Assembly (NCBI GenBank): GCA_046758445.1
Contig: JBHIAE010000001.1
Location: forward strand, 96,001-160,000
DNA length: 64,000 nt
Reading direction: 5' to 3'
Origin: Candidatus Thorarchaeota archaeon
GTDB lineage: Archaea; Asgardarchaeota; Thorarchaeia; Thorarchaeales; Thorarchaeaceae
Positions 21,845 through 34,588 of this stretch are shown piece after piece (the first letter of the stretch is position 1; every line of letters starts with the position of its first letter). Under the pieces are notes generated by a model. That model was not told the DNA's origin. It made no database searches and saw only the letters and a list, made by a program, of their open reading frames with translations. Made by a program: the position numbers and the translations under genes.

Positions 21845-21965
21845 CCTGCTCGATATCCCCGCAAAGACCTTGTAACTCAGTGGAATTCCTCCATAATAAC
21901 AGTATCCTAGGTTGGCTCTTGCACAACCTAAATCTGGGAGAACGAGTTGCTGTAGCATGAGAGAA

Positions 21966-23231
21966 ATGAAAGCAGACCTTATCCTCACCAACATTGGCCA
22001 GCTCGCAACCCTTGCAGGAAACAGTAACAGGCCCAAGACAGGAGAGAGTATGAAAGAACTATCAATTGTAGATGATGGGGCTGTAGCGATGAAAGATGGA
22101 ATCATTGTGTCGGTTGGTACGACCAAGGATGTACTGGCGGAGGTAGACGATGAGCCATCTCTCCCACCAATCGAGTTTCCAGGTATGCTTGGAATCCCAG
22201 GTTTTGTAGATAGCCACACTCACCTGGTCTTTGGTGGTTCACGTGAGAATGATTTTGCCATGAAACTTGCAGGCAAGACCTATCTCGAGATTCTAGAGAG
22301 TGGCGGAGGTATTCTCAACACTCTCAAAGCTACCCGAGCCTCGACACAGACAGAATTGAGCAGTTCTGCATTCTCCTACGCAGAGAGAATGCTCAGTAGT
22401 GGGACAACGACTGTAGAGGCCAAGAGCGGCTATGGTCTTGATGTGGAGAATGAGTTGAAGATGCTCCGTGTAGTTGGAGACCTTCAGAAGCGATTACCAA
22501 TGGAATTCGCCTCTACCTTCATGGGTGCTCACGCAATTCCTCCAGAATATCAAGGCCAGACTGACGACTACGTCAATCTAGTGGTCGATGAGATGATACC
22601 GACGGTTGCGAAACGCAATATGGCAGAGTTTTGCGACGTGTTCTGTGAGGAGGGCATATTCAACATTGAGCAGTCTCGACAGATACTTCTGGCCGCGAAA
22701 CGCGCAGGGATGAAGCTGAAGGTTCATGCTGATGAAATAGTTCAGCTGGGAGGTGCTGGTCTTGCCGCGGAGGTTGGCGCTGTTTCCGCTGACCACCTGC
22801 TGATGGCAGCTGATGATGATCTTGAGGCTATGCTCAAGACCGGCACAATCGCCACACTGCTACCTGGAACTGCATTCAGTCTTGACACGCCCTATGCTGA
22901 TGCACGCAAAATGATAGACATGGGCCTCCCTGTGGCTCTTGCAACGGACTTCAATCCCAATTGTGCAAATGAGTCCATGTTCTTCACAATCGCGCTCTCA
23001 TGCTACAAGATGAAGATGCAGCCGACAGAGGCAATCACAGCAGCTACAATAAACTCTGCACACGCCCTAGCTAGGAATGAGAGTGTTGGCAGTATAGAAC
23101 CGAGTAAGAGAGCTGACATCGTCATTCTTGAATGCCCCAGTCCTGAATACTTGTCATGGAGATTCGGAGTCAATCTTGTCCATACTGTGATAACTAATGG
23201 ACAGGTCGTGCATACGAAACTTGGTCCCTGA
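21966..23231 (+). CDS. hutI: Imidazolonepropionase
   Basis: DSHTHLVFGG, GGGILNT, EAKSGYGL, HADE, ATDFNP. Confidence 0.95.
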   Translation: MKADLILTNIGQLATLAGNSNRPKTGESMKELSIVDDGAVAMKDGIIVSVGTTKDVLAEVDDEPSLPPIEFPGMLGIPGFVDSHTHLVFGGSRENDFAMKLAGKTYLEILESGGGILNTLKATRASTQTELSSSAFSYAERMLSSGTTTVEAKSGYGLDVENELKMLRVVGDLQKRLPMEFASTFMGAHAIPPEYQGQTDDYVNLVVDEMIPTVAKRNMAEFCDVFCEEGIFNIEQSRQILLAAKRAGMKLKVHADEIVQLGGAGLAAEVGAVSADHLLMAADDDLEAMLKTGTIATLLPGTAFSLDTPYADARKMIDMGLPVALATDFNPNCANESMFFTIALSCYKMKMQPTEAITAATINSAHALARNESVGSIEPSKRADIVILECPSPEYLSWRFGVNLVHTVITNGQVVHTKLGP

Positions 23232-23829: not shown

Positions 23830-25362
23830 CTACACTTTGAGGAAAGACCCCGTCACTTCTTCTACGCTGGACACTATCTTCCCGAGGTCCATCAGCTCAC
23901 GAATCCTGACAATGTCTGAACTTAGGGGTCTGTCATCTTCCAGTTTCGGAACCACATTCCTCACAGTCGTGTATGCTTTCATCAGGGGTTCGGATGGTTT
24001 CAGTGGTGCCAAGAGATCTATCGCCTGGGCCGCACACATGTATTCAATGGCTATGACATTCTTCGCATTCTCAAGAATCTGTAGACCTTTCCTGGCCGCG
24101 ATTGTACCCATGCTGACATGATCCTCTTGGTCTGCGCTGGTTGGTATCGAGTCTACACTTGCAGGGTGCGCGTAAACCTTATTCTCAGAAACGAGAGCCG
24201 CGGCAGTGTATTGGGCAATCATCATTCCTGACTTGAGTCCACTCTCCTTGGTAAGAAATGCCGGCAGGTCGCTTAGATTTGGATTTACCAGCCTGTTAAT
24301 CCTTCTTTCCGAGATATTTGCCAGCTCACAAATCGCAATCCCTAGGAAGTCCAGTGCTAGTGCAACAGGTTGTCCGTGGAAGTTCCCACCAGATATTACA
24401 TCTCCTTCTTTTGAGAACACCAAAGGATTGTCCGTAGCAGAGTTAATTTCAGTTTCCAGTACTCCACGTACGTAACGAATCGTATCAAGAGAGGCTCCTA
24501 ACACTTGAGGAATGCATCGTAGAGAATAGGCATCTTGGACCGTTCCACAATCTGCATGAGAACGATTGATTTCACTGTCTCTTAGGATATCGAGCATTGC
24601 CTTGGCAATGTCAATCTGTCCCTTGTGGGGACGTGTGCCGTGGATTCTCTCATCCATTGCGGCTCGCGTTCCCCTTAGAGCTTCAAGACTCATTGCAGCA
24701 GCAACACTTGCATCTCTCATCAAGACTAGCGAATCATGAACGGCAATGGAGCCAACTGCGCACATCGGTTGTGTGCCATTGATGAGGGCAACTCCCTCTT
24801 TTGCCTCAAGAACAATCGGCTGGACGCCGGCCCGTTCCATAGCTGTTGCCCCATCGAGCTGCTCGTCCTCGAAGTAGGCCTCTCCCTCACCAATCATTAC
24901 TAAGGCCATGTGTGCAAGGGGGGCGAGGTCTCCACTGGATCCTACTGACCCCTGTTGGGGGATGACTGGAACAATGTCCGAATTCAACATTTCAACCAGG
25001 GTTTCTATGACCTTCAATCGAATACCAGAGAATCCCTTTGCGAGTGCATTTGCCCTTAGAAGCATCATGCCCCTCACAATCTCTCTGGAAAAAGGTGGCC
25101 CAACTCCTGCACTGTGACTACGTATCAGATTGACTTGTAGTTGAAGGATTTCGCTTTTGTCAATTGACTCCTCGGCGAGATCCCCGAAGCCGGTGTTCAC
25201 TCCATAGACGACGCGACCTTCCTTCAGTGCCTTCTCGATCACTTCTCGACTACTCCGAATTCCTTCAATTGTGGACTTAGCGAGCTTCACTGGTTCTTGA
25301 TGTCTTGCGACCTTAACGACGTCGTCAACGGTGAGACTGACTCCATCAATCATTACAGTCAT
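23830..25362 (-). CDS. hutH: Histidine ammonia-lyase
   Basis: YGVNTGFG, GSVGSSGDLAPL (MIO loop), QDAYSLRC, NFHG, QEDHVSM. Confidence 0.96.
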   Translation of the reverse strand: MTVMIDGVSLTVDDVVKVARHQEPVKLAKSTIEGIRSSREVIEKALKEGRVVYGVNTGFGDLAEESIDKSEILQLQVNLIRSHSAGVGPPFSREIVRGMMLLRANALAKGFSGIRLKVIETLVEMLNSDIVPVIPQQGSVGSSGDLAPLAHMALVMIGEGEAYFEDEQLDGATAMERAGVQPIVLEAKEGVALINGTQPMCAVGSIAVHDSLVLMRDASVAAAMSLEALRGTRAAMDERIHGTRPHKGQIDIAKAMLDILRDSEINRSHADCGTVQDAYSLRCIPQVLGASLDTIRYVRGVLETEINSATDNPLVFSKEGDVISGGNFHGQPVALALDFLGIAICELANISERRINRLVNPNLSDLPAFLTKESGLKSGMMIAQYTAAALVSENKVYAHPASVDSIPTSADQEDHVSMGTIAARKGLQILENAKNVIAIEYMCAAQAIDLLAPLKPSEPLMKAYTTVRNVVPKLEDDRPLSSDIVRIRELMDLGKIVSSVEEVTGSFLKV

Positions 25363-25538: not shown

Positions 25539-27586
25539 TTATGACCGTAGCTCATTCTTTACTAGTTCTTCTACTAGGCCGTCGGGAGGAACGAACGGAA
25601 GTGTGATGTGACCACGGCCGTCCATCAACCTGTTCCAGTCTACTGCCGTTTCAACTGCGTGTTCATTTCTGGCCCATGCTCTGCGGGCTACTCCGCCCAT
25701 TACATCCCAGTCTAGCGCAGAACGAATGACAGTGTCTACTCTCTCGCTGCCATCAAGAACCAAGCCAAAACCTCCATTGATGGCCTTCCCCGTACCCACA
25801 CCACCGCCGTTTGAGAGGACTGCCAGAGTCATGCCACGGGCCACATTTCCTGCCCAGCATTGGTGAGCCATGTCGCTTGTGACATTACTGCCGTCTCGAA
25901 TGTTTGCGGTTTCTCTGAAGGGGGAGTCTGTGCCTCCTGTGTCATGGTGATCTCTTCCAAGCATTATAGGTCCAATCTTTCCTTCTCGCACCTCCTTGTT
26001 GAACTCTAGAGCAATATTGGCGCGTCCCTTGGCATCCGCATACAGGATTCTGGCTTGGGACCCAACTACTAGAGCATTCTTCTCAGCATCCCGAATCCAA
26101 ACATAGTTGTCCCTGTCTTGGCCTCTGCCTTTCGGATCAATGCATGACATCGCTACCTTGTCAGTTTCGACCAAATCCTCGTGCTTCCCACTGAGGCATA
26201 CCCATCTGAACGGTCCATACCCGTAGTCGAAGCATATTGGTCCCATGATGTCCTCGACATAGGAAGGGAATATGAAGCCGTCATCTGTGTTCTTCCCGTT
26301 TCTCGCAATTGCCAAGACGCCTGCATCGAAGACTGCCTTCATGAAGCTGTTGCCGTAGTCCCAAAAGTGAGTGCCTCTTTTAGTCATGGTCTGGATAAGT
26401 TCGAACTGCCTACGGAGTGATTTGTCTACAAGGCTCTTGAACTCGTCACGGTCACGTTTCAATAGCTCTCTTCCCTCTTCAAATGTCACTCCTTGAGGAG
26501 TATAGCCGCCATTGTACACATCATGGCAAGATGTTTGGTCTGACGAAAGCTCGATAGGAATCTGATTGTCCACAACGTATTGCCATAGATCAACAACATT
26601 GCCAAAGTATCCTATAGAGATTGGCTCATTCTTCTCTCGGTATTCCGTGACCCACTCGAATACCTCATCGAGTTCGGCAGAATGTTTGCTGAGCCATCCT
26701 TGTTCATACCGTGTAACGATTCGACTCTTGTCAACCTCGGCGATTACTCCAATGCCGCCTGCAATCTCAATTGCCTTTGCTTGTGCACCACTCATGCCTC
26801 CCAAGCCAGAAGTAAGGAAGACCCTTCCGCTAAGGTCTTTGTCTTCTGCTATCCCCAGATAGAGTCTACCGGCATTCAGGAGTGTGATATAGGTCCCATG
26901 GACTATCCCTTGAGGACCAATGTACATCAAACCACCTGCTGTCATTTGGCCATAGTTGACTGCGGAGAGCTGGGCTGCTCGATGAAAGTCCTGAGGTGTA
27001 TCAAACATACCCACCATGAGTCCATTTGTGACTATGATCCTGGGCGCATCACTGCGAGACGGGAATAGACCGAGAGGGTGACCAGAGCTCACTACAAGTG
27101 TCTGATCTGCGTTCATGGTTTCCAAGTACTTCATGATTAATCGATACTGCATCCAGCTCTGGCAGACTTGGCCGCTTTCGCCGGGCGTGATTAGAGAATC
27201 CAATCACGCTCTCCGTAAGTGACCAGCTCGTACGGATACAGGGCGACGTTGAAGTCCAAGTTGTTATCAATCATCAGCTGAAGAGCCCGTGCTTCGAGAA
27301 TCCCGTGATATTGGTCGACCGGTTTTGCGACAATCCGGCCTCGGGGTCGGTATCTATATCCATAGATTCTTCCTCTTGTCATCAATTCAGTCAGAAACTC
27401 AGGTGCGAGGTGCTCGTGTAGTTTTGGGTGAACATACCTTAGGGCGTTCTTGACTGCAAGTATCGTGTCTTTTTCACTAAGATTGAATCCTCTATCTGGA
27501 GCTCTTCTTATCTCTGGGTCGAAGATAGGGTCGGGAGGCAGCTTATCAGATAGTTTGATTCTCATAGCTTCAGAAGGGTCATACAT
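25539..27586 (-). CDS. hutU: Urocanate hydratase (long type, 671 aa after removing 27179-27210)
   Basis: Part 1 ...NNLDFNVALYPYELVTYG joins part 2 ESGQVCQSW...YIGPQGIVHGT, GLGGMSGAQ, SDQTSCH, GRDHHD. Confidence 0.93.
27179..27210 (-). other. Putative 32-nt bulge-helix-bulge mRNA intron in hutU
   Basis: Bulges AGA and CGA, central helix ACGG/CCGG (3 WC pairs plus A-G), 10-bp internal stem, exon-exon helix; canonical cuts restore the frame. Confidence 0.8.
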
Positions 27587-27644: not shown

Positions 27645-30600
27645 TCATGAAGATTGTTGAGCTTCCGAGTTTCCATCAGACGCGAACCTGTAACGTTTCA
27701 CGATCCTACCAATTGTGGCGATGTTTCTTGAGATGCCACGAGTTCTCCATAGGTGTAGTCCGATCTGACCAGGAGATAAGCCGGACTCACTTAGCGTGCG
27801 GATTATCTCAATCTCTTGACGTGTTACTCGCTTACGTTGCGGCCTTGCTGCTAACATATCGCAAAGCTCCGATAGACTCTTGGTTCTGCCCAATGCGTTC
27901 CTGAAAAGCGGGAGCTGTGCTGCCCGCCTGATAGAATCGTGACGCACTATTTCGACGCCTGATGGATGTAGATAGGATTTGACACCAAGTGATTCCAAAA
28001 GGGCTTGTGTAAAAGGGCCATTCGAGATAGATGAGATTCCCGCGCGTTGAGCAACTGGAGAGGCGTAGCCATCTCCATCGGCCAATCCTTGGACGAATGC
28101 AATGCGGGACTGTTCGGATGATGCAAGAATCCAATCACCTATGAATGGCACATGGGTCTTCTTCTCACTAGGATTGAGTCCCAAAACAACCTCTCGAAAC
28201 CAGACGAACAATGGGCTGGAAACAAACAGTTCCCAAACCTCGTCCTTAGACCTCTTAATTCTCAGGATTCGATTAGGCTTCACGCGTGAAAAAACTGAAG
28301 AAACGTCATCCAAGGCCTGTTTAGACCAAGTATAGCTCTTGCTCAGGAGACCCCTTAGGGAAAAGGATGTTTTACTGGTAATTTGAACGTAACCATCTGA
28401 CACGGCAAATCCTATTACATACATAAAGTCCTGGAATCTCATTCGCATCTGCCGAAGTACCCTAAGAACATCAGAAACGTTGGTGAGCGTTTCCGGAACC
28501 TCGACCCAGTCCGAGAATACTTGCCCGTCTATTCGAGTAGGCAGCCACTTCCAATTCTCGACTGGCTCCTCCCTTGGGACTCCTTGCAGTAGACGTAGTA
28601 TTCTGGGCAGTCTACTTTTGGTCCAGTGATAAACAGTAGATTCGTCAAGACTCAACGCCTCCGCAATCGCCTTTTGCGATATACCTGATTCGTACATGTC
28701 TAAGAACTTGTAATACTTAGAGCATGACTCTTCAATCTCATTGTAGTTGCTCCAGCTTCTCAAATGCGGTGCGATGTAGATTCTATCCAGTAATTGCAGA
28801 ACACCTTTCATTGATCCGGCTGGTACCTTCTTTCTCAGTTCTGCTACTACTTGCCTGTTTCTGGCAGCTCGTTCGATTTGTGCGCAGATCTCAGGTCTTC
28901 CTCCGTCTACGACCCATCTTCTTGCTTTGCCGGCGGATACTCCGATATCCTCCGCCGCCTTTCGAAGTTCACTCCACCTGATGGTCTTCCTACCACCAAT
29001 CGCTTCGAAGAGATCTAAGTATGCTCCGAAGTCAACGATGAGCGAATCAATGTCTTCCAGTTTCGCCAATCCAGAATAGCTTTGAGAGATTGTTCCACGG
29101 AGTTGGGATACAGAGGATATCGTGAAACCGTCTATCTTGAAGTCGTGGAGATTGACTGTCAACTTCCCAGATTGAATCATACTTCTTTCAGAGTTCGGCA
29201 TGGCAGCAATTCGGACTGGCCAAGGAAGAACTCCATCGACCCACCTCTTTGTTGTGGTCGGCTTTAGTCGGAGCTTGCGGTCAACATCAGACTGCAGCAT
29301 TCCACTCTCAAGAAAAGACAAGGCCTCAAAGTACAGTCTTAGTCTGCTCCACTGCCTCTCAGCTGACGGCCACAGTGATATGGAATCGGAAGTCCCGGTT
29401 TCTTCCAGGATTCTGCGAACATCTTCGGCACTCTGGACATCTCCAAGCTGTTGTCGAATATTCAAAACTCTCTCCTGATTCTTGAAGACCTCATTCAAAT
29501 ACCGGAAGACCGTAGGGAGTTTCCCCTTTAGGACCCAGTTCCTTGCAGTATTGGCTGATATTCCACTTTCTTTTGCAATTGTTGAAACATCCACATCTTC
29601 AATCGGGTCTTGCTCAGAAAACGCCGACATAACTTGGAAATAGATTTGTGCCTGTTTCATCCATTTACTGAAGTTGCGGTTTTGCCTCAGTCCTGGAAAC
29701 TGTCTGTCGATTATGCTTTCAAGCTGGTCATAGGATTCTATTCGTTTACTATTGAGCTCAGGCAAAAACGTCGCAAGTTGTTTCTCTCTAGTCTTCTTGG
29801 CGGCAAGTCTGCCAACCAGGGCCGGTATTCTCTCGCCGCGGAGCCAGGCCAGCACTTCATCTTCAGGAATCCTGTATTTCAGACTCAGCTCTTTGATTTG
29901 GTCATGCCTGTACCTCTCGCGGCCGTTCCGGACTATTGTGTCAAGTTCTCCTCTCTTCCTCATTGATGAGAGTTCAATCCATGCCCTTGCCTCCTCAAGT
30001 TTCTCGTTGAAGTAAACCATTTGACGAATTTCAGGATCATTCTGAGCTTCTTCCAGTTCTTCCTCCGACGTCGGATAGTCCTGTTCGAAATGAGCTCGGA
30101 CTAACTGACCCATCAGCCAATCGCCCTCACGATTCAGCAGTCTCCTGAGCGCCTCGGGCATGGACCTACCTTCACTCCAGTCCCTCGCGGTGTCTTGGTC
30201 TAGGTCAAACTCCCCGGCCAGTTCCTCAATGTCTGTTTCCTCATCTCCCTGCTCTTTCAGCGCCTTTCTGAAACGAAGATAGTTCTCAACCTCTTCCATG
30301 GTCTCTTCGTCTTCAAGCATTGATTCAAGACCATGTTTCCGTGCGAGTTTCTCGAAGTCTTCTTCATCCTCTACTAGCCCTCGGAGATACTCTCTGATAG
30401 CCTCCTTCAGCTCCTCATCAAGTTCATTGAATATCTCTCGGAGATACCTCTGCCAGTCCTCATCCTCGCGCGAGTAGTGCTCTGGCCAATCCGATGATTC
30501 AGTATCACTCTCAGTCGCCTCAGAGTCCTCCTCACCCTTATCATGATTGGTCTTCTCTTCTGCTGATTCTGGATGCTTCTTGACGTGCTCGTACTCTTCT

Positions 30601-31478
30601 TTATGCAGAGATTCGCCCTGTTCAGCCCTGATACTCTCTTGCGATTTGCTATCGGGTTTCTCTTCAGATGTTTCTGTTTTGAGTTCGGAGTGTTTCCTGC
30701 TTTCCACAGATTCTTGGTCTTCAGGGTCCAAGGCCTCAGACTCTTCGGTTTCGTTCCCCCTCTCCGATAGTTCTTGTTCCTTCTCAGTCGCAGACGCACT
30801 GCCTTCGGGCAGGCCGGGTTTCTCCGACGGCTCCGTGTCTTCTTTCTGCGATTCACTTTCAGGTTCCGCTACAGTTTCGGAACCAGCGCTCTCGTTGGCG
30901 GAACTCTGTGTGGCGTACATCTGTCCGCTACCGTCATCGAAGTACGAATGATCATCCTCTGTTCTCCTCTGCCCTGTCTCTCCATCTCCCTCCTCATCGT
31001 CCCCCTCCTCCTTCCCATCAACTGATTCACCAATGTACTCCATGACGTCTTCGACGAATTGTTCACGCCAGCGTTTCTTCATATCTTCTGGGTCCACACC
31101 TCGCTTGTCAAATTCGTCAAGGATCTTCTTCTCGAGATCGTCGTACTTCTCCTTGTCAGCAGTTTCTTCTCTCTCTCTGCGAGCCTCTTCCCTAGCTTCC
31201 TCTCTCTCTAGTTCCCTCCTTCTGTAGTCTTCATATGCCTCTCGTCTTTCCTCTTCCTCACGTTCCAGGTCCTTTACGGCATCTTTGACGGAGTCCTCGG
31301 GCTCTTCGGGATACTCTTCTCCTTCTTGCTCTTGATTCTGATGGGTTTCTTCATCTTCCCTCTCTCTCTCAATCTGGTCTATAATCTCGCGCATCTGTCG
31401 TCGAATCTCTTCTTCGTCTTGAGACTCACGCTGACCTTCTTGTCCTCGTCTGCCTCGTTCACTTCCCTCCCCCATCAT
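27645..31478 (-). CDS. Giant protein: acidic low-complexity N-terminus, six HTH-like repeats, LAGLIDADG domain, terminal HTH
   Basis: E/D/R-rich first ~370 aa; repeated ...W-x2-3-G-x-x-P units; VIGFAVSDG and FVQGLADGDG motifs. Confidence 0.8.
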   Translation of the reverse strand: MMGEGSERGRRGQEGQRESQDEEEIRRQMREIIDQIEREREDEETHQNQEQEGEEYPEEPEDSVKDAVKDLEREEEERREAYEDYRRRELEREEAREEARREREETADKEKYDDLEKKILDEFDKRGVDPEDMKKRWREQFVEDVMEYIGESVDGKEEGDDEEGDGETGQRRTEDDHSYFDDGSGQMYATQSSANESAGSETVAEPESESQKEDTEPSEKPGLPEGSASATEKEQELSERGNETEESEALDPEDQESVESRKHSELKTETSEEKPDSKSQESIRAEQGESLHKEEYEHVKKHPESAEEKTNHDKGEEDSEATESDTESSDWPEHYSREDEDWQRYLREIFNELDEELKEAIREYLRGLVEDEEDFEKLARKHGLESMLEDEETMEEVENYLRFRKALKEQGDEETDIEELAGEFDLDQDTARDWSEGRSMPEALRRLLNREGDWLMGQLVRAHFEQDYPTSEEELEEAQNDPEIRQMVYFNEKLEEARAWIELSSMRKRGELDTIVRNGRERYRHDQIKELSLKYRIPEDEVLAWLRGERIPALVGRLAAKKTREKQLATFLPELNSKRIESYDQLESIIDRQFPGLRQNRNFSKWMKQAQIYFQVMSAFSEQDPIEDVDVSTIAKESGISANTARNWVLKGKLPTVFRYLNEVFKNQERVLNIRQQLGDVQSAEDVRRILEETGTSDSISLWPSAERQWSRLRLYFEALSFLESGMLQSDVDRKLRLKPTTTKRWVDGVLPWPVRIAAMPNSERSMIQSGKLTVNLHDFKIDGFTISSVSQLRGTISQSYSGLAKLEDIDSLIVDFGAYLDLFEAIGGRKTIRWSELRKAAEDIGVSAGKARRWVVDGGRPEICAQIERAARNRQVVAELRKKVPAGSMKGVLQLLDRIYIAPHLRSWSNYNEIEESCSKYYKFLDMYESGISQKAIAEALSLDESTVYHWTKSRLPRILRLLQGVPREEPVENWKWLPTRIDGQVFSDWVEVPETLTNVSDVLRVLRQMRMRFQDFMYVIGFAVSDGYVQITSKTSFSLRGLLSKSYTWSKQALDDVSSVFSRVKPNRILRIKRSKDEVWELFVSSPLFVWFREVVLGLNPSEKKTHVPFIGDWILASSEQSRIAFVQGLADGDGYASPVAQRAGISSISNGPFTQALLESLGVKSYLHPSGVEIVRHDSIRRAAQLPLFRNALGRTKSLSELCDMLAARPQRKRVTRQEIEIIRTLSESGLSPGQIGLHLWRTRGISRNIATIGRIVKRYRFASDGNSEAQQSS

Positions 31479-34400
31479 TCGCCCGTTTCTCCGTCAAGTG
31501 CCTTGGTAACATGATTGAACACATCCCGGTCCTTCTCGGTGTCAAGATATTCGAGCGCCAAGTCTAAGACGTATAGGTTTGAGAGTGAGCTTCCGCCACC
31601 ATGTATCTCTGAAGTCTTGCGAATCAGTTCCGTCAGTGCACCGATGTCCTCCTTGCCTAGGTTTTCGCGGAAGTATCTCTCAAACTCTCCACTCTCGACT
31701 GCAGCCCTCATCCGTTCTCTGCTTTCCCGAGGGATTCGGTGTGACCAATCGTGATTGTCCGGCACTCTTGTAGTCGTTAGAAGGTCCATTATGTCCTCAG
31801 GCAGGGGCTCTGACTCTCGAAACTCAGGGTGCTCATCGAAGACCCTACTCATGTGATTCTCGACGATGTCATCTCCTGTATCCTCCTCTGGAACCTCGCC
31901 ATGGATGAACCATCTCAGAGGGCAAATCTTCACGTTCTTGGGTTCTCCCTCGTGCTGAAGGTATATTACTGCCTCTCCTACCTGCATTCCTCCTATGTGG
32001 TCTATCTGAGAGGCAGTACATCTGGAATGCTTACCAACCATGGTCCTATCGTCTTCGTGAGGAAGAGCATGAATCACAAGATTGACGGGTATCTTGATTG
32101 CCTGAGAAACCAACGTGCTTGGGGACTGGTCGATGAGAATCACACCAAGTCCAGTTCCTCCGAGGACTCTCAGCATCTGAATGAAGGCACTGACGGCCTG
32201 CAGCCTAACGCCTGAGTTTGCCTCTCCAGATAAGTCAGACCCACCAAGAAGGTAGTGTGCCTCCTCCAAGACGAGCAGGTTTGTGACCCTCCTTGATGGA
32301 TTGGCCAGCTTGTATTCGCTCAGTGCAGCAGTCAGGACGCCAATGAGCAGGATCTTGTCGTTCTCAGACAGGTCGTCCATCTCAATGATGGTGGGATGAG
32401 CTAATAGCTCGGAAACGGTGATGCCTGTCGAAGTGTTGTACATTTTCACCAAGGAGGGTTTCCTAAGGATGCTCTTGACCCTTGCAACCAATGCGCCCCA
32501 GATATTGCTCGTGACCTCATCTCCGTAGGGCAGTTTCTCACCCACCTCTCTCACGGCATCCACTAGGTCAGTGAGAAGAATAGGTCTGCCCTTTGTGTTG
32601 GTTTCCAAGTCCCACCCGCATTTCTTGTAGACCGTATAGATCACATCCTCGATGTGCATGGAGATGACCTTCTCATTGGGCATCCAGAGTGTCCAGACCT
32701 GTACGACCCGGTCGACCCACTTGGTGAGCCGCACCCCCTCTGGCGGGTTCCAGATGTTGATTGAGAGGTTCGCCACATTGGTCCTTCCGCAGGTGAACAC
32801 TCGGAGGTCAGGAAAGAGCTTCAGTAACCATCTCCACTCATAGCCCTTTGATGGCACCAACACTACCGGATTCACGCCCAGAGTGATGGCCTGACCAATG
32901 ATGCTCTTGACCGAGGTTGATTTACCCATTCGCGTACCACCAAGAACACCGAGATGCATGTCCATATGGTCAGGCTCGCTTTTCACGTACACATTCGACT
33001 GGATGTTTCCGTTCTCGTCCATGGGATTTCCAAGATAGAGAGATGGTGAGCGCTTCTTCCACATGACAGTCGAGGGCACAAGCGATTCGAATGTACTTGA
33101 TTGGTACATAGTAGAGCTTGCTTTCTTGGAGGGTTCCCTAGTTCCTGATGAGAACTTCTCCCTCTTTGTGGTTCTGATACCAATGTCTCTTCTGGGAAGG
33201 ATGAGATAGACTGTGGCCTCTTCGGCGGTGAGAACAGACGACTTGCCAGTTGGGAGCCCATTCAGTAGTCTGGCGATCTCCTTGTCCTTTCGTCTGTAGT
33301 CAACGGTGAGCTCATCATCTCTGCTGCTGGGTCTGACCGTACCAGAGAGTGCGAAGGCGATTCGCCTGACCTCAAGGTCTGCTGAAGCAATGTCAGGGGC
33401 CCATGAAACCATTGAAACCGTCGTCTGGAACAGCTTCTGACTGGAGAGCCGTGCGTGACGTTTCTCTAATCGCTCCGCCTCCAGTTTCGCATCCAGATTG
33501 ACGACGGTCTTTGACTCTTGATGAGGTCCTGAGAACAGTCCGCCACTCTCTCTTATCTTGGTCGTCTGGGACCTCTCCTCGGCCTCTTCGTAACGGGCCT
33601 TCAGGGACCTCAACTTTCTCTTACTCACCTGAGTGGGCTCAAAAGAGACCTGAAACACTCCCCTCTCAAGGTCCTGCAAGACTCCTGTCATGGGGTCAAG
33701 CGGGTCTTTTCTCTGTGCCTCATCCCTGACAGACAGGGGTATACCGTTGACTATTGCAGCGGAGCCCTTGTCATCCTTCGCTAGGGCGAGTCCACTGAAG
33801 GAGTCCAAAACATCAAACTTGAACCCAGACAGGTTTTCCTTGAGAGCATCGTGCATTACAGTCCTCTGATGTTCAAGTAAGGCCTCATCCTTTGACCAAG
33901 TCAGGAAGAACACGCGTGTACGATTCCGAATGCGTTCGATACGCAGGGCGAAGGGAACAGCTGAGAGGCTTCGGATTATGTTGTGGAACTGCTCCACCAT
34001 GGTTGTCTGGTTGTTTCTTCCTTCTTCGTCGAAGGCGTAGTCGTGTGGTATCTCTTTGAGCTCAATGGCCAAGACCTTCTCCGGATCCCTCTTGAACATC
34101 ATCCCACCTGTGGAGTATGATTGCATTTTATCTCCTATCGATTTCGAGGAAGTGGTGATGAGCCCAGTTTTGGCAACGCCCGTCTTCCGACGAAGCAGAA
34201 GAGGGACGGTAAGTCCTATCATTGTCACAACTAGCACAGCAACATTGAGAGCGTTGCCAAAGAGAGGGACTGGTATCCAAGAAAGAAGGACAAGCGTCGC
34301 AAGTGCTATGCAGCCTACGCCTATCAGCAGACCAATGACTAGAGAGTAGAGCCAAGACCGCAGGTTTTTGGTCAGTAATAGGCTACCCGCTCCAAATAGA

Positions 34401-34588
34401 AAGACAAATCCAACAAGAAGCAAGGCATTGCCCGTCCACTGAGATGGCACCCATGGGAAGAGCAGGAGCAGAAACAAGACACCGGAAGCTGGAATAACTG
34501 TCAACAGCATTAGTAACAGACCTTTGAATGCCCAAGAAACCCATGAAGATGACCTCTCATCTGTCATGCACCCAACTCTCCTGGCCAT
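31475..34588 (-). CDS. Membrane-anchored VirB4/HerA-FtsK-superfamily ATPase
   Basis: Four N-terminal TM helices; Walker A GGTRMGKST; Walker B LVLEEAH; ILIDQSP. Confidence 0.85.
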   Translation of the reverse strand: MARRVGCMTDERSSSWVSWAFKGLLLMLLTVIPASGVLFLLLLFPWVPSQWTGNALLLVGFVFLFGAGSLLLTKNLRSWLYSLVIGLLIGVGCIALATLVLLSWIPVPLFGNALNVAVLVVTMIGLTVPLLLRRKTGVAKTGLITTSSKSIGDKMQSYSTGGMMFKRDPEKVLAIELKEIPHDYAFDEEGRNNQTTMVEQFHNIIRSLSAVPFALRIERIRNRTRVFFLTWSKDEALLEHQRTVMHDALKENLSGFKFDVLDSFSGLALAKDDKGSAAIVNGIPLSVRDEAQRKDPLDPMTGVLQDLERGVFQVSFEPTQVSKRKLRSLKARYEEAEERSQTTKIRESGGLFSGPHQESKTVVNLDAKLEAERLEKRHARLSSQKLFQTTVSMVSWAPDIASADLEVRRIAFALSGTVRPSSRDDELTVDYRRKDKEIARLLNGLPTGKSSVLTAEEATVYLILPRRDIGIRTTKREKFSSGTREPSKKASSTMYQSSTFESLVPSTVMWKKRSPSLYLGNPMDENGNIQSNVYVKSEPDHMDMHLGVLGGTRMGKSTSVKSIIGQAITLGVNPVVLVPSKGYEWRWLLKLFPDLRVFTCGRTNVANLSINIWNPPEGVRLTKWVDRVVQVWTLWMPNEKVISMHIEDVIYTVYKKCGWDLETNTKGRPILLTDLVDAVREVGEKLPYGDEVTSNIWGALVARVKSILRKPSLVKMYNTSTGITVSELLAHPTIIEMDDLSENDKILLIGVLTAALSEYKLANPSRRVTNLLVLEEAHYLLGGSDLSGEANSGVRLQAVSAFIQMLRVLGGTGLGVILIDQSPSTLVSQAIKIPVNLVIHALPHEDDRTMVGKHSRCTASQIDHIGGMQVGEAVIYLQHEGEPKNVKICPLRWFIHGEVPEEDTGDDIVENHMSRVFDEHPEFRESEPLPEDIMDLLTTTRVPDNHDWSHRIPRESRERMRAAVESGEFERYFRENLGKEDIGALTELIRKTSEIHGGGSSLSNLYVLDLALEYLDTEKDRDVFNHVTKALDGETGE

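Follow-up and report, generated by a model that had tools for sequence, protein, structure and literature searches.

In a Candidatus Thorarchaeota archaeon, the urocanase gene hutU is interrupted by a 32-nucleotide (nt) insert that is very probably a bulge-helix-bulge (BHB) intron of the archaeal type, excised from the mRNA; comparing sequences, we put the probability of this reading at about 0.85. The gene lies on the minus strand of a 64,000-nt stretch of DNA (GenBank assembly GCA_046758445.1, contig JBHIAE010000001.1, positions 96,001 to 160,000; hereafter the window), with the insert at positions 27179-27210, and it is the single hutU copy in the 3.25-Mb assembly. The unspliced frame that starts with the ATG at 27586 ends at a TAA (27193-27191) within the insert, which interrupts the Pfam domain Urocanase_N at profile positions 44/45, so that this domain is split between the two exons. 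Deletion of the 32 nt gives 671 codons without any further stop, and the resulting junction, YGE/SGQV, aligns without gaps to the solved urocanase 6uek and to 18 intron-less relatives. An initial annotation, made from the letters of this stretch alone, had predicted exactly this excision and an intact 671-residue urocanase in an Asgard genome; the excision, the protein and the Asgard (Thorarchaeota) origin all held.

The insert and its flanks form two flanking helices, two bulges and a short helix in between. The exon-exon helix, in which 27225-27217 pairs with 27177-27169, has nine positions, comprising seven Watson-Crick pairs, one G-U pair and one A-C mismatch. In the central helix, ACGG (27216-27213) stands opposite CCGG (27184-27181), giving three G-C pairs and one A-G. 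The two 3-nt bulges, AGA (27212-27210) and CGA (27180-27178), sit on opposite strands, followed by an inner stem of 10 bp (27209-27200 with 27194-27185) that is closed by a 5-nt loop (27199-27195). The insert itself consists of the third base of bulge 1, the hairpin, the 3' strand of the central helix and the first two bases of bulge 2. The initial annotation had given the minus-strand sequence correctly, and the two bulges and the 4-bp helix that define BHB introns are present in a relaxed form, with 8/9 positions of the outer helix and 10/10 of the inner stem paired. The segment folds better than all of 200 shuffled versions (z = -3.75).

Comparison of hutU among related genomes, which the initial annotation had proposed, revealed introns at two sites, present in some relatives and absent from others, with compensatory changes in the stems at both. 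About 57 Thorarchaeota hutU genes were compared, about 46 of which are intron-less (L, G and C numbers are our handles for loci, genomes and contigs, G000 being the genome of the window). At site 1, the site of the window, introns of 30-32 nt occur in five distinct versions, found in the window, L107, L030/L081/L106, L066/L114 (SMTZ1-45) and L109, which have widely different sequences and an identical layout. In their inner stem, 93% of cells are paired and 6/10 pairs are altered on both sides. In the L109 version, all 4 bp of the central helix form, and the fold of lowest energy is also the exact BHB motif.

Site 2 lies 81 codons downstream, inside the invariant motif NYGQMTAG, where inserts of 29-30 nt with in-frame stops are found in seven genomes (L026, L058, L059, L067, L069, L124 and G003). 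Across six of the seven, 96.9% of cells are paired and 7/16 pairs are changed on both sides, including one change in the central helix, from ACGG/CCGT to ATGG/CCAT; sliding the partner by 1-3 columns as a control reduced pairing to 31-46%. Most site-2 copies have a canonical 4-bp central helix and a minimum-energy fold that shows the exact motif. Once the insert is cut out by the BHB rule, bases from both exons together make up the conserved Gln codon, also in copies whose unspliced sequence has His at this place. The two sites were tabulated separately, site 1 by script and site 2 by pair counting, as MAFFT gave no in-register alignment of them. Both insertion sites are preceded by the same seven bases, TTACGGA, and the two sets of introns have loop and stem motifs in common, which together suggest that they belong to one intron family. 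One site-2 copy, in a genome of the same genus (L154:1790-1840, G003 C11), is 29 nt long, not a multiple of three, and the gene there appears as two frames.

The introns are scattered over the hutU tree, which requires at least 4-5 state changes for the site-1 introns and at least 3-4 for those of site 2; thus they have often been gained or lost. The window clusters with full support with L107, which has an intron, and L021, which has none, and close relatives in general differ in both the presence and the site of the intron. The intron stem of L107 (JABAOF010097754.1), the closest intron-bearing relative, is 2 nt shorter than that of the window.

Small inserts also occur in other genes of this genome. 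The single 16S rRNA gene (L153:2375-2405, G000 C2) has a 30-nt insert in its conserved core, after Rfam model position 853/854. ARAGORN reported introns in 20 of the 35 tRNA genes, many of 30-36 nt and some of more than 1 kb, with boundaries too imprecise for a comparison of geometry. From the 16S insert and the tRNA introns together, the cell very probably has to remove inserts of about 30 nt from essential RNAs. The same 16S gene contains further extra stretches near model positions 1296-1320.

These data bear on what a spliced intron would do in hutU. The initial annotation had proposed a post-transcriptional switch that gates histidine catabolism, a role for which only the location in a metabolic gene and the eukaryotic precedent of HAC1/XBP1 speak, where RtcB-type mRNA splicing can be regulatory. 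Against it stand the many intron-less genes among the relatives, the variation in presence and site among close relatives, the similar insert in the 16S rRNA gene and the link to an endonuclease-like gene directly upstream (see below), and we regard a switch as unlikely. A mobile intron, selfish or protective, fits the patchy distribution and the linked gene better. Given the scatter across the hutU tree and a small family at two sites after TTACGGA, we consider the hutU intron more probably an element of this mobile kind than a regulator.

If the insert were instead a dead-end hairpin resembling a repetitive extragenic palindrome (REP) or a miniature inverted-repeat transposable element (MITE), or a random insertion, hutU would be a young pseudogene. 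In favor of this, the unspliced frame stops at the insert after 6 codons, and L107 has an additional frame disruption. However, the 3.25-Mb genome has no second copy of the hairpin when up to 5 mismatches are allowed, and the dispersed copies by which the initial annotation would have recognized a REP/MITE-like element were not found within this limit. An assembly artefact, a further possibility it had raised, also finds no support: contigs built independently from three DNA (metagenome) runs of one hydrothermal-vent study, which may be the source of the assembly itself, carry the insert without differences, and no contig from the three runs has the intron-less form.

Selection on the gene points the same way. 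Excision by the BHB rule leaves each of the nine full-length intron-bearing genes with an open frame of about 670 codons and with its conserved residues restored. Synonymous sites are saturated between most of them (proportion of synonymous differences, pS, about 0.8), at a proportion of non-synonymous differences (pN) of 0.12-0.17. For pairs in which both members carry a homologous intron, the ratio of non-synonymous to synonymous divergence (omega) is 0.093 for the window and L107 (509 codons), 0.095 for L030 and L081, and 0.038 for L067 and L069. The non-synonymous branch of the window (0.021-0.031) shows no acceleration compared with that of its intron-less sister L021 (0.026-0.036). Intron-bearing hutU is under strong purifying selection (omega 0.04-0.10), and has been so while the genes diverged to synonymous distances (dS) of 0.43-0.93 without any other lesion. 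For practical purposes, these values rule out an inactivating insertion, and a pseudogene would explain neither the covarying stems nor the exon positions described next.

The exon sequences around the introns are unusually uniform. One 16-nt 5' flank is common to all site-1 genes, whereas none of 51 other Thorarchaeota hutU genes has it. The outer helix has 8-9 of its nine pairs in the site-1 genes, compared to a mean of 5.3 (range 2-7) in intron-less genes. Likewise, AAT-TAY-GGA precedes the cut in all site-2 intron-bearing genes, compared to 1/16 of the intron-less genes examined. On these counts, synonymous exon positions, wobble bases included, are tuned to form the outer helix in intron-bearing genes. 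The uniform flanks would result either from selection for a spliceable fold or from co-conversion with the intron; a neutral insertion fails to account for them.

Two further explanations leave the mRNA uncut. Urocanase might be assembled from two polypeptides, a 131-residue N-terminal fragment and a C-terminal fragment that starts from the TTG at 27203, inside the insert, where a 554-residue open reading frame (ORF) indeed begins. Such an arrangement is hardly credible: the break would fall inside the conserved Urocanase_N at site 1 and inside the invariant NYGQMTAG at site 2, neither a start nor a ribosome-binding signal is conserved among the intron sequences, and both the BHB covariation and the exon tuning would lack an explanation. 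Programmed translational bypassing of the phage T4 gene 60 type, in which the ribosome would leave at the Gly codon GGA and land on a Gly codon at the insert end, is the least credible of all, as, despite the hairpin, the nearby stop and a GGN just before the resuming codon in the window and L066 that would yield the same YGESGQ peptide, a matching landing codon is missing in L109, translation in L030 would continue with Lys in place of the conserved Glu, the Gln codon at site 2 exists only when both exons are joined, and the covarying central helix and two 3-nt bulges are left unexplained.

The host appears equipped for the splicing of such an intron. Its genome encodes two proteins with an EndA domain (PF01974), in the regions C1:41817-42071 and C7:9600-9857, and one RtcB, the enzymes on which the initial annotation had relied. 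The Asgard EndA is reported to be of the heteromeric, broad-specificity type (PMC5829648), and the two EndA-domain genes match that type; the cleavage rule for archaeal BHB introns places the cuts between the second and third residues of each bulge (PMC2738675). We propose that the exon flanks of the hutU pre-mRNA would pair, that the ends of exon 1 and of the insert would come together in the short central helix, and that the insert's own 10-bp hairpin would stack on it. EndA would then cut after the second base of each 3-nt bulge, and RtcB would ligate the exons, releasing an mRNA for the 671-residue urocanase and a 32-nt intron.

Several points weigh against excision of the insert as a BHB intron. 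The cutting and joining themselves we infer from comparison of DNA, no RNA run being listed among those that contain this sequence. In the window copy, the exact canonical BHB has an energy of -24.7 kcal/mol compared to -28.6 kcal/mol for the minimum-energy fold, 3.9 kcal/mol above the optimum, which makes it a relaxed BHB, and its central helix consists of only three pairs and an A-G mismatch. With such a weak central helix and a non-optimal canonical fold, recognition would rely on a tolerant endonuclease. In L107, hutU has a 4-nt frame-disrupting insertion near codon 52 in addition to an NN scaffold gap, which could be an assembly error or the start of decay. Finally, a scan of the genome for motif and frame found no second candidate at equal stringency and gives no support to a genome-wide system.

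That scan followed up the suggestion of the initial annotation that other split genes might hide similar introns; it recovered the hutU case and added none. It returned 61 motifs that were formally about as good, with many overlapping calls in GT-rich repeats, and among the 61 only the motif of hutU interrupts a frame and rejoins two open frames of at least 100 codons under the BHB cutting rule. Looser scans for a motif plus an open frame were noisy, with 3837 and 164 candidates, and missed known true introns in control loci; we therefore refrain from stating how many mRNA introns the genome contains. A covariance model trained on the site-2 introns with their exon flanks, too gene-specific for wider use, gave three weak matches in the own genome, none a convincing intron, and did not recover the site-1 intron. 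At G000 C6:40362-40405 (+), a hairpin core resembles the hairpin of the L067 site-2 intron; it lies within a read-through ORF and has no BHB layout. The idea of an RNA-guided nuclease was considered and rejected, as 20-mer matches with 4 mismatches look like chance and nowhere else does the genome contain 14 nt or more that run across the intron-less hutU junction.

Directly upstream of hutU is the endonuclease-like gene mentioned above. Its product of 1277 residues combines an acidic N-terminus and helix-turn-helix (HTH) repeats with two LAGLIDADG motifs, each with its acidic residue kept, in the C-terminal region. The C-terminal region scores above the Pfam cut-off for PF14528, and its structural model (predicted local distance difference test, pLDDT, 78.6) has its best, though weak, matches among I-DmoI chains (E about 0.01, probability 0.97-1.0). 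A gene for a HerA-like ATPase precedes the LAGLIDADG-type gene in both copies of the own genome, in the window and at G000 C51:1-4555. The coordinates of these genes, the hutU exons and the adjoining histidine catabolism genes are given in Table 1; hutH and hutI, described as intact by the initial annotation, are so by their NCBIfam scores.

Table 1. Features of the hutU region in the window (positions counted from its first letter).
Feature	Positions	Strand	Evidence
hutU exon 1 (codons 1-125 and first base of codon 126)	27211-27586	-	Translation; Pfam Urocanase_N; alignment to 6uek
Putative BHB mini-intron, 32 nt, with in-frame TAA	27179-27210	-	Geometry; folding; relatives; contigs of three DNA runs
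hutU exon 2 (last two bases of codon 126 to stop codon)	25539-27178	-	Translation; Pfam Urocanase_N/Urocanase/Urocanase_C; NCBIfam hutU; alignment to 6uek
Complete BHB motif (outer exon-exon helix, central helix, two 3-nt bulges, inner hairpin)	27169-27225	-	Sequence; folding; relatives
hutH (histidine ammonia-lyase), intact, immediately downstream of hutU on the same strand	23830-25362	-	Pfam Lyase_aromatic; NCBIfam hutH, 724 bits, above cut-off
hutI (imidazolonepropionase), intact	21912-23231	+	NCBIfam TIGR01224, 464 bits, above cut-off
HTH-LAGLIDADG endonuclease-like gene, 1277 residues, ending 58 nt before the hutU start	27645-31478	-	PF14528 above cut-off; model resembles I-DmoI
HerA/DUF87-like ATPase gene, overlapping the start of the LAGLIDADG-type gene by 4 nt	31475-34588	-	

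Orthologues of the LAGLIDADG-type gene lie directly upstream of hutU with a site-1 intron in L030/L106 and L066 (60% and 41% identical, respectively), and a paralogue of 33-34% identity lies directly upstream of hutU in L124, which carries a site-2 intron. By contrast, no such gene precedes hutU at any of the 41 intron-less loci for which 1 kb or more of flank is available. All four lineages with the gene thus carry a hutU intron, against a base rate of roughly one in five, although four lineages are too few for a phylogenetically sound test of co-occurrence. Nine intron-bearing lineages are without it, namely L107, L109, L081, five site-2 loci and G003. The loci L081 and L030 differ by exactly this gene, homology starting just past its stop codon, and the identity between them is 97% in exon 1, 93% in the first 40 codons of exon 2 and 87% in the rest of exon 2, a pattern that resembles a recombination tract with the intron inside it. 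No exon-wide excess similarity indicative of co-conversion was seen between the three endonuclease-bearing clades.

Of 86 genomes in the taxonomic family, 35 have more than one member of the LAGLIDADG-type gene family, an occurrence typical of mobile nuclease genes. Other members stand upstream of uninterrupted genes of the carboxyl transferase, oxaloacetate-decarboxylase and GcvT types. The carboxyl transferase genes beside paralogues have no intron in about 480 codons, and the own-genome paralogue (G000 C51) adjoins no interrupted gene; accordingly, a partnership of intron and nuclease is not general in the family. The paralogues in L122, L124 and L126 contain single in-frame stop codons inside otherwise open matches, which may be further mini-introns or signs of decay.

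The co-occurrence with hutU introns suggests homing-type mobility or protection, and the LAGLIDADG-type gene is a possible partner of the hutU intron. We tentatively consider, at well under even odds, that the hutU mini-introns and the upstream HTH-LAGLIDADG gene form a homing partnership. The nuclease would then cleave hutU at its TTACGGA-type sites where no intron is present, a carrier would be protected because its target is split by the 30-nt BHB intron, and repair would spread the intron, sometimes along with the nuclease gene.

The host gene itself seems to have a bacterial connection. In the hutU tree, the Thorarchaeota genes are 70-75% identical to those of Cloacimonadota and Acidobacteriota, close enough to suggest transfer between domains.

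The best-known archaeal mRNA intron is the BHB intron in the cbf5 (pseudouridine synthase) pre-mRNA of Crenarchaeota (Watanabe 2002; Yoshinari 2006; Yokobori 2009, PMC2738675). In the literature we searched, splicing is confirmed for no other archaeal coding sequence, and introns of further protein genes had only been predicted (PMC2738675). Like cbf5, hutU has a short intron in its coding sequence with a mostly relaxed BHB and predicted cuts between the second and third bulge residues; both are tied to a heteromeric splicing endonuclease and show gain and loss among relatives. However, hutU is a metabolic gene of bacterial type in Asgard archaea (Thorarchaeota), whereas cbf5 is an RNA-modification gene. 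Moreover, hutU differs from cbf5 in its two insertion sites, its uniform hairpin of 29-32 nt and the linked endonuclease-like gene, and its intron is known from DNA alone. For Asgard mRNA introns, the literature we searched contains no report, in line with the initial annotation, which knew of no described example.

Short hairpin BHB introns in archaeal tRNA and rRNA, including Asgard tRNA, share with that of hutU the motif, the predicted enzymes, repeated gains at motif-capable sites and, in the 16S and tRNA genes of this genome, the length of about 30 nt. Unlike them, the hutU intron would lie in a translated mRNA, where excision has to be exact to the base to keep the frame and the exon helix is made of codons. 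A 2026 preprint on Asgard introns covers those of tRNA only and leaves the route of their arrival open (bioRxiv 10.64898/2026.10.13.758758).

A nuclease-bearing parallel is collaborative homing, which the hutU locus resembles: as far as the cited account goes, the psbA group I intron of cyanophage S-PM2 has no nuclease of its own, is mobilised by the free-standing nuclease F-CphI and breaks the target of that enzyme (Zeng 2009 in PMC6083498). On the points which that account covers, hutU resembles psbA in that a nuclease-type gene adjoins a gene whose intron lacks a nuclease. The hutU intron differs in being of the BHB type rather than a self-splicing group I intron, the nuclease is an I-DmoI-like LAGLIDADG protein with HTH repeats that is paired with a HerA-like ATPase, and cleavage of intron-less hutU is putative.

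Closer in fold, the best matches of the C-terminal domain encoded upstream of hutU are to I-DmoI, with both acidic motif residues kept. I-DmoI and its relatives are LAGLIDADG endonucleases encoded inside archaeal rRNA BHB introns. The window gene, by contrast, stands outside the intron, upstream of the interrupted gene, and is about seven times as long as the solved I-DmoI chains (1277 compared to 172-191 residues).

Asgard archaea are the closest prokaryotic relatives of eukaryotes, and here an ordinary metabolic gene would be readable only after mRNA splicing that is exact to the base. Genes that annotation of such genomes marks as split or frameshifted may then be intact, and the need to fold into a splice motif can shape exon sequence. 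The linked endonuclease-like gene offers a testable idea for the spread of such introns, and a homing partnership, if true, would provide a concrete route for tRNA-type introns into Asgard protein genes.

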